Shown: positions 2,140-14,546 of the stretch, one piece after another
Layout of the letters: each line of letters starts with the position of its first letter
How positions within the stretch are numbered: the first letter of the stretch is position 1
IMG/VR virus record: IMGVR_UViG_2526164689_000027
Span: 1-16,182 of that record
Source: a virus
Taxonomy: Duplodnaviria > Heunggongvirae > Uroviricota > Caudoviricetes
Length of the DNA stretch: 16,182 bases
Strand: one strand, 5' to 3'
Notes under the pieces: model-generated
The model's database searches: none
The model's input: the letters and a program-made list of their open reading frames with translations, nothing else
Told to the model about the DNA's origin: nothing
Program-made: the position numbers and the translations under genes

Positions 2140-3189
2140 TTACCCGAGCACGCCAGTCGCAAAGGCGTGATCAAGAAAACGAAAAATTAACTCAATCTGA
2201 GAGCCGTACTTTTTCTCAAACTTCAGCGGGTCTGCATGAAGTTCGTTGTGGTGCTCCCGGCACAACGGTAGCGTGAAAATATCGTGGGCCTTTGTTCCCA
2301 CTCCCCCCTGACCATGACCAATCAGGTGATGCGGATCGTCAGCTGGCTTACCACAACACGCACACGGCTGTGTCTTTACCCAGCGCGTGTATTTCTCATT
2401 AACCCAACGGCGACGTTTAGGCCGCCTCATGAACGATTCAGGAGACTCCGGATCAACGGCGATACTGACAACCGTTTTTTTCTGTGGTGGATTTTGTTGC
2501 TGGTGGACGTGAAGTGGCAGCGCAATATTTTTTGTGCGCTGCTTCAGTATGCTGATGGCTGTCTGTTCTCCCGGTACGATGTCACTCTCACGGTATACGG
2601 AGCGGATTTTTTCCGCTGGTAATCCCAGCGAACGACGCGCTACTGCCTCAGGTAGTGCATCCACCACCTGATTGCAGGCCGCCCACCAGGATAATTCGGC
2701 CAGCGATAACTCCCTCTCCTGCGTACCGCTTATTGCGTGACGGATGACATCAATCATCCAGGCAACCAGATTCTGCTGAGCAAGTTGATCGAGTGATTCT
2801 GATGTCTGGTCGCGCAGCTGGTTGTCACAGTGCCAGCACAACACCATCGCGCCGGTACCATAACGGTGAATGACTGTTTCGCTGTGATGATAATCGCCGT
2901 GTGGCCACTGGCAGGATTTCACGTGACGTAATAACCAGTCAGACAGTGCACCTGCACCACCTGCTGCACGAATAACCCGCTCATCGCTGAAAAATGGCAG
3001 TAATGTTTTATCCTCTGCCAGCGGCTGGCGAACGGCAGGAACGACTCCGGACGGCAGACCACGCATGTTTTTCGGTTCCGGCTCCACCAATATTCTGCCG
3101 TTATGGAATACTGACATTGATTCACGGCCTGGCTTAACGATAACCAGACCGAGTTCCGGTACCAGAACAGGTCGAAGTAATACCCGCAC
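2140..3189 (-). CDS. ydfU: DUF968-family prophage protein (YdfU-like) with C-terminal HNH-like motif
   Basis: 349 aa from a GTG start at 3189 with GGAGGT SD, 1 nt after the upstream stop. Synteny with rusA and the Q-like gene matches Qin ydfU. C-terminus CACCGKPADDPHHLIGHGQGGVGTKAHDIFTLPLCREHHNELH resembles an HNH/zinc-finger nuclease motif. Confidence 0.65.
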   Translation of the reverse strand: MRVLLRPVLVPELGLVIVKPGRESMSVFHNGRILVEPEPKNMRGLPSGVVPAVRQPLAEDKTLLPFFSDERVIRAAGGAGALSDWLLRHVKSCQWPHGDYHHSETVIHRYGTGAMVLCWHCDNQLRDQTSESLDQLAQQNLVAWMIDVIRHAISGTQERELSLAELSWWAACNQVVDALPEAVARRSLGLPAEKIRSVYRESDIVPGEQTAISILKQRTKNIALPLHVHQQQNPPQKKTVVSIAVDPESPESFMRRPKRRRWVNEKYTRWVKTQPCACCGKPADDPHHLIGHGQGGVGTKAHDIFTLPLCREHHNELHADPLKFEKKYGSQIELIFRFLDHAFATGVLG

Positions 3190-3190
3190 G

Positions 3191-3460
3191 TTACCTCCAG
3201 ATGCGCTGCAGGAATGTGCGGGACGGACGCGGTGGGCGTTCGGAATAAGGGAGCCTGACGGAGATTATCCAGTGACGACGATCGAAGCTGAGGGCTTTCT
3301 CAAACTCATATCCGCGCCTGCGGTAACACTGGATCAGCCATTCGGCCTGTTCTTCAGTGCATAGGGGATGCTGGAACCAGTCGGTTTTAAATACGTGCGA
3401 ACACCGCCCTTGCCTACTGGCAAGGGCGGCAGAATTGTGCAATCTGCTATCGTGCGCCAT
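3191..3460 (-). CDS. Hypothetical nin-region protein (89 aa)
   Basis: ATG at 3460 with GGAG SD about 9 nt upstream; the stop abuts the DUF968 start. No recognisable motif. Confidence 0.4.
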   Translation of the reverse strand: MAHDSRLHNSAALASRQGRCSHVFKTDWFQHPLCTEEQAEWLIQCYRRRGYEFEKALSFDRRHWIISVRLPYSERPPRPSRTFLQRIWR

Positions 3461-3964: not shown

Positions 3965-4336
3965 ATGCGAATTTTCAAAAACGCCTGGTTTGAACGTTTC
4001 GCCCGAAAACATCGGATTTCCGATAAATCGCTGCGCAAAATCGTGGAGCAGGCCGATAAGGGGATCATATCCGCAAATTTGGGTAGTGGTGTCATTAAAC
4101 AAAGATTAGCCCGAAGTGGTGGCGGAAAATCAGGCGGTTACCGGACAATAATTTTTTACCGCGTTGCAGAAAAAGCCTTTTTCATCTACGCATACGCAAA
4201 GAATGAACGAGAGAATATCACTGCTATAGAGGAAAATGCTTTTCGAAAAGCCGCTCCCCATGTCCTCAATCTTACTGATGAACAGCTGGCACAATTGATT
4301 CAACAAGGCCAGTTCACGGAGGTACCCAATGAGTAA
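3965..4336 (+). CDS. RelE/ParE-superfamily toxin, HigB-2 / Gp49-like (123 aa)
   Basis: Block GSGVIKQRLARSGGGKSGGYRTIIFYRVAEKAFFIYAYAKNERENITAIEENAFRK parallels the V. cholerae HigB-2 core (GTGGLRKIRV...GKRGGSRIIYYF...YLLTIYGKNE). Its stop overlaps the start of the next gene by 8 nt, with toxin first as in HigBA-type operons. Confidence 0.7.
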   Translation: MRIFKNAWFERFARKHRISDKSLRKIVEQADKGIISANLGSGVIKQRLARSGGGKSGGYRTIIFYRVAEKAFFIYAYAKNERENITAIEENAFRKAAPHVLNLTDEQLAQLIQQGQFTEVPNE

Positions 4337-4646
4337 AAATTACCGCAGTGATGCACTTGCATCTGTACATGAAATGATGGAGTCACTCCATGATATCGGT
4401 GCAATCACAAAACAAACTATGCGCGAATTCGATGAAACTTGTCTTCAGCCTGCGCCGGTAATGTCTCCGGAAAGGATCCGTGCACTGCGAGAACGAGAGC
4501 ATCTGTCTCAACCTGTTTTTGCCAGATACCTCAACGTCAGTAAAAACCTGATATCAGACTGGGAACGAGGAGTGAAACGCCCGGGAGGTGCAGCTCTTCG
4601 GCTTCTTTCAGTTGTCGAGAAAAACGGGATCCAGGTAATATCCTGA
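4329..4646 (+). CDS. HTH (XRE-type) antitoxin, HigA-2-like (105 aa)
   Basis: Translationally coupled to the toxin. C-terminal region RIRALREREHLSQPVFARYLNVSKNLISDWERGVKRPGGAALRLL is a typical XRE helix-turn-helix. Confidence 0.7.
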   Translation: MSKNYRSDALASVHEMMESLHDIGAITKQTMREFDETCLQPAPVMSPERIRALREREHLSQPVFARYLNVSKNLISDWERGVKRPGGAALRLLSVVEKNGIQVIS

Positions 4647-4748
4647 TATTCTAATACAACAAAACCCGCCGAAGCAGGTTAAGTGCGGGTGCGTTGAGGA
4701 TGCCTGACACATCAGAGGTGGCGAGGGATTTCTCCCTCGCCAGGTCTC

Positions 4749-4904
4749 TTACTCCTCAGGTTCGTAAGCTGTGAAGACAGCGACCTCCGTCTGGCCGGTT
4801 CGGATTCGTACCTCGCAGAGGTCTTTCCTCGTTACCAGTGCCGTCACTATGACGGTTAAACAGATGACAATCAGGGCGATTAACATCGCCTTTTGCTGCT
4901 TCAT
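4749..4904 (-). CDS. hokD: Hok/Gef-family type I membrane toxin (HokD/RelF-like, 51 aa)
   Basis: MKQQKAMLIALIVICLTVIVTALVTRKDLCEVRIRTGQTEVAVFTAYEPEE matches the Hok/Gef family across its full length (transmembrane helix then conserved CEVR..GQTEVAVFTAYE). ATG at 4904; the track ORF extends in frame to an upstream ATG at 4961. Confidence 0.85.
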   Translation of the reverse strand: MKQQKAMLIALIVICLTVIVTALVTRKDLCEVRIRTGQTEVAVFTAYEPEE

Positions 4905-5175
4905 AGCCTGCTTCTCCTTGCCTTTCGGCACGTAAGAGGCTAACCTACATGTGCAAAGCATGAAATTGGCCTCAGATTAATGTTAAGCGTCCTGCAAGAC
5001 GCGTAATGTTAACTGGGGCTTTTCTCTGTCTGCCTTACGGCGGCATGCCCGAGGCAGACAGCCTCAAGCACCCGCAGCAATTCTACTTAACTCTTCTTTC
5101 CCCGCAAATCATTTTATCCCCGATGGTAATGTTCTCCCGATATGGGAATTCCCATATCAAGGTTAACTCAATCGG

Positions 5176-5727
5176 TTAAAGCTCCATTAATTTTCCGGCC
5201 AGTTCATCTCGTGGCATTACCAGCCATCCGCGCGATTTAAGCAAAGCCAGGGCTTCTTCAACCGTCACCAGCTGGCCAGGCGCATAACTTCGGATGAAGG
5301 CGGTTTTATCGTCACGGATCGCCAGGTGAAAATCGATATTCATTTTTCCCATAGCCCGCTCTTTCTCGTACTGGTTGAAGTAACTGTCTTCGAGTTTTTC
5401 GAATACTTCCCACGCCTGATCGGTTTCGAGCATTTTTGCATGACGGGCTGCTCCGCGTTCTGTCCAGAGGATGAGAGTGCGGGTTTTGGGAGAAATTTTC
5501 ACCTCATTTTGCGACTCGTTTAAAACTAGTCGCAAATTTTTGAGCTCATCACCAACAGCTTTAAAGAAGTGTTTTCCCTCAATAAATCGAGATTTATTTT
5601 CATGGTGATTCTGCTGTATACGGATTGCTTCTGTTCCGTAAAGGCGGGCGAGTAACTCAGTTGTGATTACAGGAATCTGGTTATAAGTGACAGGGGAAAG
5701 GTTTTTGACAGTAACTTGAGTCGTCAT
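5176..5727 (-). CDS. ORF6N-domain protein (phage antirepressor-like, 183 aa)
   Basis: ATG at 5727 with GAGGG SD. N-terminus ITTELLARLYGTEAIRIQQNHHENKSRFIEGKHFFKAVGDEL fits the ORF6N/KilA-N-like consensus (from recollection). Confidence 0.5.
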   Translation of the reverse strand: MTTQVTVKNLSPVTYNQIPVITTELLARLYGTEAIRIQQNHHENKSRFIEGKHFFKAVGDELKNLRLVLNESQNEVKISPKTRTLILWTERGAARHAKMLETDQAWEVFEKLEDSYFNQYEKERAMGKMNIDFHLAIRDDKTAFIRSYAPGQLVTVEEALALLKSRGWLVMPRDELAGKLMEL

Positions 5728-5891
5728 GATAACGCCCTCTGGTTGATGAATTTAACTATCACCACCTTCAGGTCTCAATCATCAGGTGGCGAGACGTACA
5801 GGGTTGAGACTACCGGATCAACCAACCGGCCAGCCTTTCGGCTGCCCCATACGCCTCACCATAATTCAGATGTGCGTGCGCATACGACAAT

Positions 5892-5913
5892 AAAAAACAC
5901 GCTCGCGGCGTGT
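5892..5913 (-). terminator. Rho-independent terminator in the nin-type region (tR2-like position)
   Basis: On the minus strand: stem ACACGC / GCGTGT with 5-nt loop CGCGA, followed by 6 U (complement of A5892-A5897). Confidence 0.45.
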
Positions 5914-5998
5914 GTCTGTCGCGGTTGAATATCCGGGGTCTCAATCCCGACGGTCAACTCGACCGTGCGGTGAATATAGCCCCGGATTAGTAATTACG

Positions 5999-6082
5999 TC
6001 AACCCCAGCGGCAAATCGAATAAACCACCAGCGCTACCGCCATTGCAACTCCTGCCGTTACGAATGCCTCAGGCCAGGTCAT
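5999..6082 (-). CDS. Possible 27-aa hydrophobic peptide (MTWPEAFVTAGVAMAVALVVYSICRWG)
   Basis: ATG overlaps the stop of the upstream small gene (ATGA, 6082-6079). The peptide is one predicted transmembrane helix. Below the size cutoff of the ORF track; no dedicated SD. Confidence 0.2.
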   Translation of the reverse strand: MTWPEAFVTAGVAMAVALVVYSICRWG

Positions 6083-6264
6083 CGTAAACTATCCTCAGCG
6101 CCAATCAGTCCGTTTCGCTTCAGGCAGTCCATCGCTTTATACGGTAATTTGGCTGACAGGCGAAAATCACCCTGCAGCATCAGGCTTATTCCCTTATCCC
6201 GGGCTTTCGCTCTGACCGCTGCCTCGCTACGACCAATCAGACTGCCGATACTTTCGACAGTCAT
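6079..6264 (-). CDS. Small putative DNA-binding protein (61 aa, NinH-like position)
   Basis: ATG at 6264; start is uncertain because the track ORF begins upstream at a non-ATG codon. MTVESIGSLIGRSEAAVRAKARDKGISL looks like a helix-turn-helix. Confidence 0.35.
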   Translation of the reverse strand: MTVESIGSLIGRSEAAVRAKARDKGISLMLQGDFRLSAKLPYKAMDCLKRNGLIGAEDSLR

Positions 6265-6323: not shown

Positions 6324-7085
6324 TCACCGCTGCTGTTCTCTGGTGGCGGTAATATCCCGGAGAATATCCCGGCACTTGTTCAGCTCCCGCAGCGCGGCGC
6401 AGACTCGCTCCCACTTCTGAACCTGACCTTTTGCCCGGCGCAGCTCGCGGTTAGCCACATGCAGCGATGGTAAAATCAGCCCATCCGGATGCTTTCTGGT
6501 GAACGACGGCTGTGACTGCACTGTGACCGCCACACTTTCCGTTTTTATTTCTTCCTGTGTTTCCGCTTCCCGGACTGGTAACGCAACACATGCTGGCTGA
6601 GGAAAGGCTTTACCATCGGTTTCCGCTACGGATGCAGCTTCCGGCTCTGCCGGTAAATCAGCGCCCGGTATGCAGTAACGAAATTTACCGTTCTGATTTA
6701 CGCGTGCCAGGCGCCCCGTTGCTGTTACGACCGCCAACGTGGAAGCAACCTTGCGAATGCTAACACCGAACTTATCCGCCAGTTCCTCACACGTTTTAGC
6801 CCCATCCTGACAGATAAACTCAATCATCATGTCCGCGGTAACTTTTTGTTCGACCTCCCCGGTCAGCACATCCGGTACTTCAGACTGTGCTGGCTGTTCT
6901 TCGGTTACCCCGGATTCACCTTCGACAGCCAGAAACCAGGTGTGACCCGTTTTATCAACAACGCCATTTTTTTTGAGTTCCCACAGTTCGTTGAGAACTT
7001 CTTCACGGCTGATATCAAGCCGCGCCGCCAGTTCAACAGAATTGGCTTTACCCATCGCTTTCAGTGCATGCAATACGGTTCCCAT
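6324..7085 (-). CDS. Tandem winged-helix protein (254 aa), function unknown
   Basis: ATG at 7085 with GGAGG SD 9 nt upstream. Two repeated wHTH-like segments, [44 protein letters not shown] and [43 protein letters not shown], plus a charged C-terminal helix. Confidence 0.5.
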
Positions 7086-11376: not shown

Positions 11377-11434
11377 TTCTGGTGACATTTGGCGGTATCA
11401 GTTTTACTCCGTGACTGCTCTGCCGCCCTTTTTT
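11377..11434 (+). ncRNA. dicF: DicF small regulatory RNA (Hfq-dependent sRNA targeting ftsZ and other mRNAs)
   Basis: TTCTGGTGACATTTGGCGGTATCAGTTTTACTCCGTGACTGCTCTGCCGCCCTTTTTT matches my recollection of E. coli DicF almost base for base, including the terminator hairpin GGCGG (11391-11395) / CCGCC (11423-11427) and U-tract. Lies just upstream of dicB as in Qin. The 5' end is approximate (RNase-processed in K-12). Confidence 0.7.
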
Positions 11435-12074: not shown

Positions 12075-14546
12075 ATGAGTAAAGTCTTTATTTGCGCCGC
12101 CATTCCGGACGAACAGGCAATAAAAGAAGAGGGCGCAGTTGCTGTAGCCACTGCCATTGAAGCCGGTGATGAACGCCGCGCCCGTGCCAAATTTACCTGG
12201 CAATTCCTGGAGCAATATCCTGCTGCTCAGGACTGCGCTTATAAATTTCTTGTCTGCGAAGATAAACCTGGCATGCCCCGCCCTGCTATCGACTCCTGGG
12301 ATACCGAATATATGCAGGAAAACCGCTGGGATGAGGAATCCGCTTCCTTTATTCCGGTCGAACCAGAATCCGATCCTATTAACGTCAATTTTGACAAGCT
12401 GTCCCTTGAAGTACAGAACGCGGTCCTGGTTAAGTTCGGTACATGTGAAAACATCACCGTTGATATGGCGATTGACGCGCAGGAATTACTGCAAGAAGAC
12501 GTGGCTACCTTTGACGGACATATCGTTGAAGCACTGATGAAAACGCCTGAAATTAACGCTATGTATCCGGAACGCAAACTGTTCGCTATCGGATGGGTTA
12601 AACACAAATGTAAGCCGGGTACCAAATGGCCCGAAATTCAGGCTGAATTACGTAACTGGAAAAAACGGCAGGACGCAGAGCGCAAAGAGACTGGAAAATA
12701 CACGTCTGTTGTTGATCTTGCCCGCGCCAAAGCCAACCGACAGCACACTGAAAACCCAGCAGAAAAAATCCCTCCTGTAACTGCCGCCATTCATCGCGAA
12801 TACAAGCAGACATGGAAAACCCTGGACAGGGAGCTGGCCTACTATCTCTGGCCTGGTGATGCGGATGCCGGAAACATTGACGGCAGCATCCTTCGCTGGG
12901 CTAAAAATGAAGTTATCGCCAGAGATCGCGAAGACTGGAAGCGCATCTCCGCATCAATGCGCAAACAACCTGATGCGCTTCGCTACAGCCGCCAGACTAT
13001 TTTTGGCCTTGTCCGTGAACGTCCGATCGACATTCACAAAGACCCTGTGGCACTGAACAAATACATTACTGAATACCTGACTACAAAGGGCGTGTTTGAA
13101 GATGAAGGAAGAAATCAGAGCGCAACTGATACTCTCTCGTCGCCAGTACCAGAAACTGATGCAGTGGAAACGGCAATTCAGGACAACGAAAAAACCGAAT
13201 GCAAAGTGGAAGTCGAATCATCTGTAGAGCGTGAGGGGCCGTTCTACTTCCTCTTCAGCGACAAGGATGGCGAAAAATACGGTCGTGCAAACAAACTTTC
13301 TGGTCTGAATAAGGCGCTGGCTGCAGGGGCTACTGAAATCACGAAAGAAGAATATTTTGCCCGCAAAAACGGTACATACTCAGGTTCACAACAAAATACT
13401 GGTGCATCTGACACGATCGCACAACCGGAGCCGGTAAAAGTTACCGCTGACGAAGTAAACAAAATTATGCAGGCAGCCAATATCAGCCAGCCTGACGCCG
13501 ATAAGTTGCTTGCTGTATCACGTGGTGAATTTGTTGCAGGGATTAGCGACCCGAATGATCCGAAATGGGTGAAGGAGATTGAAACCCGCGATTCAGTGAA
13601 TCAGAACCAGCAAGAAACGGAACAGAACGACCAGAAAGCGGAACAAAACAGCCCAAATGCGTTACAAAACGAGCCAGAAACGAAACAATCCGAACCAGTA
13701 GTGCAACAGGAACCGGAAAAAGTCTGCACCGCCTGCGGTCAGAGCGGTGGCGGCAACTGCCCCGATTGTGGCGCTGTCATGGGCAACGCAACATACCAGG
13801 AAACATTCGATGAAGAGAATCAGGTTGAAGCTCAGGAGAATGATCCGGAGGAAATGGAAGGCGCTGAACATCCACACAAGGAGAACACTGGCGGCAATCA
13901 GCATCACGCCAGCGATAGTGAAACTGGCGAGGCGGCAGATCCCTTAATTAAGGTGAATGGTCATCACAATCTCACATCCACCAGCAGAGCGGGGATTCAT
14001 CTGATGATCGACATTGAAACCATGGGAAAAAATCCCAATGCCGCGATTATCTCAATAGGCGCAATATTTTTCGATCCACAAACCGGAGATATGGGACCGG
14101 AATTTAGCAAGACCATCGATCTGGATACTGCTGGCGGAGTTATTGATCGTGACGTCATTAAATGGTGGCTGAAGCAATCACGTGAAGCGCAGTCTGCCAT
14201 TCTGACCGATGAAATCCCGTTAGATGATGCACTACTGCAATTGCGGGAATTTATCGCCGAAAACTCCGGTGAATTTTTTGTTCAGGTCTGGGGAAATGGA
14301 GCCAACTTCGACAACGTGATTTTACGCCGTTCATACGAACGGCAGGGGATCCCCTGCCCCTGGCACTACCACAACGATCGCGATGTACGCACAATCGTTG
14401 AGCTAGGGAAAGCCATAGACTTCGATGCCAGAACAGCTATCCCATTCGAAGGTGAGCGCCACAATGCACTTGATGACGCCCGTTACCAGGCAAAATACGT
14501 TTCAGCTATCTGGCAAAAACTGATCCCGAGTCAGGCTGATTTTTAA
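12075..14546 (+). CDS. Large prophage exonuclease (823 aa): unassigned N-terminal region, Cys4 zinc ribbon, C-terminal DEDDh 3'-5' exonuclease domain
   Basis: ATG at 12075 with GAGG SD. C-terminal motifs MIDIETMG (Exo I), WGNGANFDNVIL (Exo II) and HNALDDARYQ (Exo III) define a DnaQ-like DEDDh exonuclease. CTACGQSGGGNCPDCG (about 13721-13775) is a CxxC...CxxC zinc ribbon. Position corresponds to Qin ydfE, which I recall as a 306-aa IS-truncated remnant in K-12. Confidence 0.75.
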   Translation: MSKVFICAAIPDEQAIKEEGAVAVATAIEAGDERRARAKFTWQFLEQYPAAQDCAYKFLVCEDKPGMPRPAIDSWDTEYMQENRWDEESASFIPVEPESDPINVNFDKLSLEVQNAVLVKFGTCENITVDMAIDAQELLQEDVATFDGHIVEALMKTPEINAMYPERKLFAIGWVKHKCKPGTKWPEIQAELRNWKKRQDAERKETGKYTSVVDLARAKANRQHTENPAEKIPPVTAAIHREYKQTWKTLDRELAYYLWPGDADAGNIDGSILRWAKNEVIARDREDWKRISASMRKQPDALRYSRQTIFGLVRERPIDIHKDPVALNKYITEYLTTKGVFEDEGRNQSATDTLSSPVPETDAVETAIQDNEKTECKVEVESSVEREGPFYFLFSDKDGEKYGRANKLSGLNKALAAGATEITKEEYFARKNGTYSGSQQNTGASDTIAQPEPVKVTADEVNKIMQAANISQPDADKLLAVSRGEFVAGISDPNDPKWVKEIETRDSVNQNQQETEQNDQKAEQNSPNALQNEPETKQSEPVVQQEPEKVCTACGQSGGGNCPDCGAVMGNATYQETFDEENQVEAQENDPEEMEGAEHPHKENTGGNQHHASDSETGEAADPLIKVNGHHNLTSTSRAGIHLMIDIETMGKNPNAAIISIGAIFFDPQTGDMGPEFSKTIDLDTAGGVIDRDVIKWWLKQSREAQSAILTDEIPLDDALLQLREFIAENSGEFFVQVWGNGANFDNVILRRSYERQGIPCPWHYHNDRDVRTIVELGKAIDFDARTAIPFEGERHNALDDARYQAKYVSAIWQKLIPSQADF

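Follow-up and report, generated by a model that had tools for sequence, protein, structure and literature searches.

An orphan palindrome in an Escherichia coli O157:H7 prophage as a remnant of a KilA-N/BstA-like gene and a candidate aba-like DNA element

The window, the whole 16,182-nt stretch of prophage DNA analyzed here, carries at 5139-5158 a perfect 20-bp palindrome that sequence comparison identifies as the surviving core of a deleted gene of KilA-N/BstA-like type, predicted to act in abortive infection. Comparison of intact homologues shows the 20-mer to be an element selected at the DNA level. We propose that it would be the cognate site of the family's KilA-N domain and serve in self-immunity. 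Taken together, the gene remnant, the DNA-level element and this inferred role form a reading for and against which we find the chances about evenly balanced.

The palindrome and its surroundings

The window was 100% identical to a prophage of E. coli O157:H7. The palindrome, GATATGGGAATTCCCATATC, was confirmed as a perfect, spacerless repeat of 10+10 nt, and the bases flanking it (c...a) did not extend the symmetry. All neighbouring genes lie on the minus strand. The layout is as follows.

4680-4663, minus strand: terminator 3′ of mok/hok
4735..5085, minus strand: hok/sok module, left anchor of the slot, 87% identity to 1642-1985 of phage vB_EcoS-666R9 (L001)
4749-4904, minus strand: hok coding sequence
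to 4961, minus strand: mok
4899-5073, minus strand: sok/hok leader (Rfam)
5086..5137, no strand: left junction, in place of 515 bp of 666R9 that span the region upstream of the gene together with its 5′ part
5138..5181, plus strand: 44-nt remnant of a KilA-N/BstA-like gene, about codons 57-72 (blastn, tblastn, profile HMM)
5139..5158, no strand: palindrome GATATGGGAATTCCCATATC, orphan copy of the inverted repeat of the KilA-N/BstA-like gene
5176..5987, minus strand: isrK-C4-ORF6N cargo, in place of the 3′ two-thirds of the KilA-N/BstA-like gene
5176-5727, minus strand: ORF6N antirepressor gene, 183 aa (Pfam ORF6N, E 1.9e-20; PHROG 2379 'anti-repressor', E 1e-77)
5782-5866, minus strand: C4 antisense RNA (Rfam, 69 bits)
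5892-5966, minus strand: isrK (Rfam, 51 bits)
5987..6151, no strand: right anchor of the slot, 85% identity to 666R9 3133-3294

Several other features of the window were recorded in passing. With isrK and C4 directly upstream of the ORF6N antirepressor gene, this part of the lambdoid prophage resembles a c4-ant immunity module of the P1/P7 style. A RelE-family toxin and HTH antitoxin pair (3965-4646, plus strand) adjoins the hok/sok type I system (4749-4961, minus strand), so that two toxin-antitoxin systems stand back to back. DicF sRNA (77 bits) was found at 11377-11428 upstream of dicB, and a copy of STnc100 sRNA (134 bits) at 536-724 near the Q/late region. A second perfect spacerless palindrome, GGCAGGGGATCCCCTGCC (9+9), lies at 14341-14358 within an 823-aa exonuclease ORF (12075-14546).

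The preliminary description had held such a repeat to be very unlikely by chance. Taken alone it is only moderately unlikely: spacerless palindromes with arms of at least 10 nt appeared in 7 of 300 dinucleotide-preserving shuffles of the window, and a single occurrence is therefore an event of about 2%. No second copy was found in the window with up to 3 mismatches allowed; three half-sites with one mismatch, besides the two arms, were judged not meaningful. What excludes chance is recurrence. The exact 20-mer was present in at least 120 IMG/VR contigs and in 74 GenBank phage records, and similar matches turned up in 794 of 5426 complete E. coli genomes.

The palindrome had also been called a poor intrinsic terminator, and this held. 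When an 81-nt RNA containing it was folded (-23 kcal/mol, z = -2.3), it formed an 8-bp stem; no T-run follows it on either strand, and a terminator scan of the window did not flag it. A rho-independent terminator was thus rejected. So was a known RNA, as Rfam gave no family at the palindrome in the window and 14 related loci.

The palindrome is separated by 17 nt from the ORF6N stop codon (5176-5178, minus strand) and is found some 67-86 bp upstream of where the hok transcript begins (leader start at 5073 in the Rfam sok/hok model), with a putative hok -35 element, read from the sequence, about 27 bp downstream of it. This position, together with the predicted DNA-binding domain of ORF6N, which is of the same broad class as KilA-N, would suit an operator through which a regulator of this prophage (the ORF6N antirepressor or a Cro/CI-type protein) controls hok or the ORF6N operon. 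We consider such an operator very improbable indeed: the palindrome is present as a single copy in the window, it lies outside the conserved hok module, most hok loci do not have it, and the same 20-mer stands beside paa, stk, methyltransferase and helicase genes without any ORF6N gene.

The module boundaries were located by comparison. Upstream homology among many E. coli hok loci ended at about 5121-5124, and the ORF6N/isrK/C4 modules of Stx phages matched the window only over 5376-5978. Both stop short of the palindrome, which so belongs to neither neighbour. In a hok-anchored comparison the module boundary read ...ccgtttttaYCC; an 18-nt filler, ccgatggtaatgttctccc, separates the hok-upstream sequence from the palindrome, which it abuts. 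Most hok loci had other sequence at this position, and 20 of 80 loci among the matches listed in the hok-anchored scan were those already known through the palindrome. Membership of the palindrome in the hok module was thereby rejected, the Rfam sok/hok model ending at 5073; a site specific to ORF6N was rejected as well, since the neighbours vary. The hok/sok module is a neighbour of the element and not part of it. Nor is the palindrome an accessory of the ORF6N gene or the hok leader, because identical 20-mers adjoin unrelated neighbours: paa, stk/PP2C, a C5 methyltransferase and the helicase-primase of Dhillonviruses.

A remnant of a KilA-N/BstA-like gene

Positions 5138-5181 matched the inside of a plus-strand gene of Escherichia phage vB_EcoS-666R9 with 86.4% identity over 44 nt (E 2e-5, 2.3 Gb searched). 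The 20-mer is identical in that gene and supplies codons 58-64 (D-M-G-I-P-I-S) for a KilA-N protein of 257 aa (URC10132.1), and in the window 5138..5181 translates as S-P-D-M-G-I-P-I-S-R-L-T-Q-S-V-K-A. E. coli strain 7/2 carries a gene identical to that of 666R9 (NZ_CP023820 1554974-1555747). The match is embedded in collinear synteny. Between the two anchors listed above, of which the right one is the block 3′ of the gene in 666R9, the palindrome with the remnant corresponds to 666R9 2501-2544 (86%), and further on a DUF1627 gene at 6349-7034 corresponds to 666R9 4359-5035 (74%). In sibling phages the slot of the intact gene lies between the hok module and the DUF1627/replication genes. From the match and the synteny we therefore conclude that the window keeps a 44-nt remnant of a 666R9-type gene.

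A profile HMM of the family found this 44-nt fragment as its sole match in the window (E 2e-4). Neither the window nor the complete PPompW prophage (44 kb), a sibling that carries the adhesin gene paa where the window has the ORF6N module, gave a KilA-N/BstA-like ORF with it; there was only the short remnant. The ORF6N stop codon falls inside the 44 nt. The comparison with 666R9 thus shows, at the level of sequence, a gene whose 5′ part has been deleted and whose sequence from about codon 73 onward has been replaced by the isrK-C4-ORF6N module.

We then examined the identity of the parent protein. Residues 14-112 matched the KilA-N domain (Pfam PF04383, E 4.3e-27), the full length matched PHROG 6287 'BstA abortive infection system, replication inhibitor' (E 2.7e-89), and residues 119-238, the C-terminal domain, matched PADLOC BstA (PDLC02356, E 3.2e-21). 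BLASTP against BTP1 BstA gave 32% identity over the 142 C-terminal amino acids (E 3e-16). The domain, PHROG, PADLOC and BLASTP matches thus describe a BstA-like protein with a canonical KilA-N N-terminal domain; the parent carries both the C-terminal BstA domain and the KilA-N(-like) one at the N-terminus by which the BstA family is recognized. In PhiR5_2 a homologue was located immediately downstream of cI, the classic position of bstA. On these matches the parent is predicted to be an abortive-infection gene of BstA-like type.

KilA-N genes with other C-terminal domains (contigs L023 and L100) also carry the palindrome, and because of them we link it to the KilA-N domain and not to BstA function in itself. 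Neither the motif nor the palindrome is present in the distant KilA-N proteins D3 orf11, HK544 and Mcat19, so the feature belongs to one KilA-N subfamily. Two side observations concern these genes. In the 429-aa KilA-N protein of L100 (1524-2813, minus strand) the motif is duplicated (VDMGIPIPG...SDMGIPISQ), and the C-terminal region resembles GIY-YIG/T5orf172 nucleases. L023, L439 and related phage contigs of 200-400 kb encode KilA-N proteins with perfect palindromes in two variants, GATATGGGAATTCCCATATC and GATATCGGAATTCCGATATC.

Selection on DNA symmetry inside intact genes

The codon usage of the motif was examined by a scan for every synonymous spelling of D-M-G-I-P-I-S (with serine as TCN). 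All KilA-N contexts spelled it as GATATGGG...CCCATATC, which includes GGA, CCC and ATA, rare codons in E. coli; unrelated proteins with the same peptide used other codons. The peptide itself was not kept where the palindrome changes. Among homologues retrieved by protein similarity, the following peptides differed from D-M-G-I-P-I-S and the inverted repeat stayed perfect.

D-A-G-I-P-A-S: perfect 20-mer GATGCGGGAATTCCCGCATC
E-T-G-I-P-V-S: perfect 20-mer GAAACGGGAATTCCCGTTTC
D-T-G-I-P-V-S: perfect 20-mer GATACCGGAATTCCGGTATC
D-V-G-I-P-T-S: perfect 20-mer GATGTCGGAATTCCGACATC

The analysis was extended to 73 homologues taken from genome_contigs with two seeds, QGTWVHP and DGYINATA, both located outside the motif. 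They came from Alpha-, Beta- and Gammaproteobacteria, Verrucomicrobiota, Nitrospirota, Bacteroides, Oceanobacillus and others. With a register shift of one or two codons allowed, a perfect 10+10 repeat stood at the same codon position in 27 of the 73, 9 of 10 pairs in 19 and 8 of 10 in 11. In fixed register, at least 9 of 10 pairs were found in 41/73, as against 1/19,519 control in-frame 20-mers from the same genes. Pairing was 8.0 of 10, above the 6.1 of a synonymous-codon null.

At least 9 distinct perfect variants were observed, and the changes are compensatory. Among distinct 20-mers, pair 6-15 was C-G in 19 and G-C in 18, pair 4-17 A-T in 25 and G-C in 12, and pair 5-16 T-A in 29 and C-G in 11. 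The central pair 9-12 co-varied too, being A-T in 18, T-A in 6 and G-C in 3 (AATT, TATA and GATC centres). The proline codons CCC/CCG and the valine codons GTA/GTT co-varied with their partner bases, and a change of Ser to Thr (TCG to ACN) was accompanied by Asp to Val (GAT to GTT/GTG), which restored pairing. Since compensatory changes, at synonymous sites and even from Asp to Val, keep the repeat, it is the DNA symmetry itself that is selected. The comparison thus shows the 20-mer to be a DNA-level element of the intact genes, kept in bacteria that are very distant from one another.

The nature of the symmetry was then considered. Intermediates with G.T and with A.C on the sense strand were about equally common, with no strand bias; together with the covariation of the centre pair, this favours a two-fold duplex DNA site over an RNA hairpin of one strand. 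One exception is closer to a hairpin than to a duplex site of two-fold symmetry: the PaV-LD variant keeps 7-bp arms around a non-symmetric 6-nt centre.

A hairpin in the rightward early transcript, acting as a 3′-end stabilizer, a weak attenuator or an insulator between isrK-C4-ORF6N and the hok promoter, would also draw on the predicted fold given above and on position, the palindrome lying 17 nt past a stop codon here, 22 nt past one in Dhillonviruses, and 7-9 nt ahead of an intrinsic terminator in a 70-nt module described below. We give it little credence. Beyond the missing U-tract, the negative terminator scan and the lack of an Rfam family, bases 9 and 12 would be unable to pair in a hairpin and still co-vary, the G.T/A.C balance singles out no transcribed strand, and orphan copies conserve the arm sequence beyond pairing and stand in either orientation with respect to the genes around them.

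The comparative data accordingly favour a symmetric DNA site bound by a dimeric protein. The preliminary description had already suggested a dimeric-protein site, and this part stands, on the co-varying arms and centre pair and the lack of strand bias, whereas the ORF6N/hok context in which it had been placed was wrong. The probable binding protein is not encoded in this prophage.

An antisense ORF was also rejected, as the reverse strand in 666R9 runs straight into a stop (GCG TGA) past the motif. Mutual information between arm variants and protein columns was on average 0.43 for the N-terminal and 0.42 for the C-terminal domain; five of the six top columns outside the motif lay 14-20 residues upstream of it, a signal inseparable from phylogeny.

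Copies without the gene

In E. coli, orphan copies were found in about 611 or more genomes (147 with the window type, 464 with a 27-nt type), far more than the 137 with the intact gene. About 147 genomes, most of them O157:H7, share the window haplotype at 100% identity, and recent descent is by itself enough to account for its intact state in this lineage. Upstream of hok, the cargo next to the palindrome was the ORF6N module in the window, paa in TW14359 and PPompW, stk/PP2C in YB14-1, and others elsewhere. The ORF6N module and the stk/PP2C cargo join at the same point, after ...gttaaag, and all deletion or replacement junctions of hok-linked copies lay 0-3 nt from the left arm.

The orphan here might be a neutral fossil, i.e. 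a palindrome that matters in the intact gene and is in the window an inert coding leftover caught before decay. The little time elapsed, to judge from the identity of the ~147 genomes, is in keeping with this, and decay is seen in some orphans, L226/L234 and L127 bearing deletions of 1 nt. Several observations argue otherwise. Over 15 hok-linked haplotypes the palindrome differed by 7% on average and the next 20 nt of the same remnant by 33.5%, about 5-fold less conserved, a contrast that is inflated because the set came partly from exact-match scans. Two decayed copies maintained pairing through a compensatory A>G/T>C change. Independent orphans kept just the 20-mer ± 1-3 nt in unrelated flanks, and virulent Dhillonviruses conserve and even amplify it. 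A fossil therefore seems to us unlikely, while deserving serious consideration.

Orphans were not confined to hok. A 70-nt non-coding module consisting of CTACCATACAAGC, the palindrome, GAC.. and an intrinsic terminator AGGGCCTCTTCGGAGGCCTTTTT located 7-9 nt 3′ of the palindrome was found between unrelated flanks in nin regions of lambdoid prophages (L178 1490-1560; L133, L140, L156, L166 and others). The genes whose stop codons it follows differ, one of them encoding a C5 DNA methyltransferase. A LexA-box-like promoter was seen downstream of it in several loci.

The 20-mer also occurs in virulent phages. About 155 Dhillonvirus records share the region carrying it, and 5 of 5 sampled genomes had it, three exactly and two with one mismatch, 22 nt past the helicase-primase stop. 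No KilA-N ORF was found in Dhillonvirus KarlBarth (Bas17). The Dhillonvirus insert is 24 nt long, bounded by 30-bp direct repeats, and present as a single unit outside Teewinot. In Teewinot (L497, NC_073053), five tandem 53-bp units follow the helicase-primase gene at 1159-1390; one contains a perfect palindrome and the other four have the right arm and the GGGAA core with the left arm altered.

Variant GATATCGGAATTCCGATATC was present in 52 viral contigs. In about 17 of them its context is an orphan one; some of these genomes are G+C-rich, and in some cases the variant forms an in-frame part of a Pro/Ala-rich linker in another ORF. As separate observations, the G+C-rich phage contigs L440, L450, L465, L469 and L069 carry the A+T-rich palindrome in frame in long ORFs, the surrounding segment being Pro/Ala-rich and linker-like (for example APAPDIGIPISDHH), and in L069 a further, imperfect site (GTTACGGGAATTCCCGTTTC) lies at a distance of about 29 bp. 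Both strands of the palindrome read D-x-G-I-P-x-S and are free of stops.

The precise junctions at the left arm, the joining of different cargoes at one point and the Dhillonvirus insert with its direct repeats and tandem array also raise the question of a recombination hot spot or miniature mobile element, cut or mis-replicated as a cruciform or hairpin, which would mark cargo edges and be copied to new places. This we find distinctly unlikely, as no recombinase or transposase is associated with the palindrome, 20 bp is short for cruciform extrusion, and the compensatory symmetry of intact genes over phylum-scale distances would be left unexplained. Returning to the site derived from the gene, the distribution described here shows, from sequence occurrence, that the bare 20-mer persists or was acquired in many phages devoid of the gene.

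Proposed function and significance

Selection at the DNA level, lineage-specific compensated variants and survival and spread without the gene lead us to infer a cognate KilA-N site with aba-like self-immunity, orphan copies of which would protect replicating phage DNA. The palindrome would be the double-stranded site bound by the family's dimeric KilA-N domain, and would either label DNA in replication as 'self' or act by titrating the protein, as aba turns BstA off. On this reading the orphan in the window would shield the replicating DNA of its prophage from KilA-N/BstA-like proteins of co-resident prophages, and would have no role in the expression of hok or ORF6N. One aba copy in the chromosome gave no protection (Owen et al. 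2021, PMC8585504), and any protection by the palindrome would for this reason need a replicating prophage. A further point against the proposed role is that the three tested BstA proteins (BTP1, Ec and Kp) are not known to carry the palindrome.

A bolder extension would see a portable, DNA-only anti-defence element, the 'self' site of a widespread KilA-N abortive-infection family, placed within the codons for the protein's own DNA-binding domain and captured as a decoy by unrelated phages, the arm variants defining immunity groups. The captors would be lambdoid prophages of E. coli O157:H7 and virulent Dhillonviruses, the latter with tandem amplification. We hold this extension only tentatively.

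Even without the proposed function, an inverted repeat in a coding sequence here overrides amino-acid identity across phyla. If the proposal is true, a defence gene carries its own antidote as a palindrome and other phages steal those 20 bp, and the aba of BstA, the single known DNA-encoded self-immunity element, would become a case of a general principle detectable from sequence. The 20-mer could then mark phages that escape KilA-N/BstA-like defences, of use in phage therapy against E. coli, including the BASEL Dhillonviruses. It would also offer a natural set of compensatory variants for working out DNA recognition by the KilA-N domain, and would account for a 'boundary sequence' that recurs where the nin regions of EHEC prophages are mosaic.

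Three core strings of 16 nt from the palindrome of E. coli type were not found in the searchable literature, nor was anything relevant on palindromes in connection with KilA-N or any follow-up on aba or on the mechanism of BstA, and Owen et al. (PMC8585504) make no mention of a palindrome. From the absence of the core strings and the silence of that paper, a compensated palindrome inside KilA-N/BstA-like genes, with its orphan copies, seems to be new, not being described in the literature that could be searched.

Comparison with known systems

Conserved boundary or linker sequences at module junctions are known in lambdoid phages. The palindrome resembles them in being short and conserved and in standing between unrelated sequences at cargo junctions of nin regions; it differs in being a defined palindrome that arises from, and is selected in, a coding gene, and in occurring also in non-lambdoid virulent phages.

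A precedent for a site within its own coding sequence, again in a lambdoid nin region, is Roi of HK022, a DNA-binding protein that Clerget and Boccard in 1996 reportedly found to bind within the gene encoding it. Roi and the KilA-N/BstA-like parent are different proteins. The HK022 Roi site was rejected as an identity for the palindrome, no copy of which was found in the HK022 nin region with up to 2 mismatches in the 14-nt core.

The parent gene resembles the BstA family in its full-length match to PHROG 6287, its C-terminal match to PADLOC BstA and its position next to cI in PhiR5_2. It departs from BTP1 BstA in its N-terminal domain, a canonical Pfam KilA-N domain where BTP1 BstA has a KilA-N-like one, and the identity between the two (32%) is confined to the C-terminal 142 aa; the 666R9 gene moreover sits in the nin region next to hok. 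BTP1 BstA and a gene of BstA-Ec type in CP024289, listed in Table S1 of Owen et al. beside the tested Ec gene (NCTC10963) and of the same 897-bp length, have a different N-terminal domain and no palindrome. In the BTP1 bstA locus no palindrome with arms of at least 8 nt was found.

BstA blocks phage DNA replication, and aba, a cognate-specific element in the bstA locus that is DNA-based and neither RNA- nor peptide-based, switches BstA off on replicating or high-copy DNA, also in trans (PMC8585504). The aba of BTP1 is a non-palindromic element of 63 bp that runs over the start codon and has CCCGCC direct repeats at its ends, and those of the Ec and Kp loci were never mapped (PMC8585504). The palindrome, in contrast, is 20 bp long and occupies codons 58-64 of genes with a canonical KilA-N N-terminal domain, where aba-BTP1 is at the 5′ end of its gene. 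With sequence and position both different and no similarity between the two, identity of the palindrome with the published aba was rejected. The main text of Owen et al. (PMC8585504) makes no mention of orphan or hijacked aba copies.

The resemblance is one of kind. Like aba, the palindrome is a short DNA element inside a BstA-family abortive-infection locus of prophages: in intact homologues it lies within the bstA-family gene, and in the window the element is left and the gene is gone. Its lineage-specific arm variants would give the same kind of cognate specificity. By this analogy the palindrome is best filed as a candidate further variant among DNA self-immunity elements of the aba kind.
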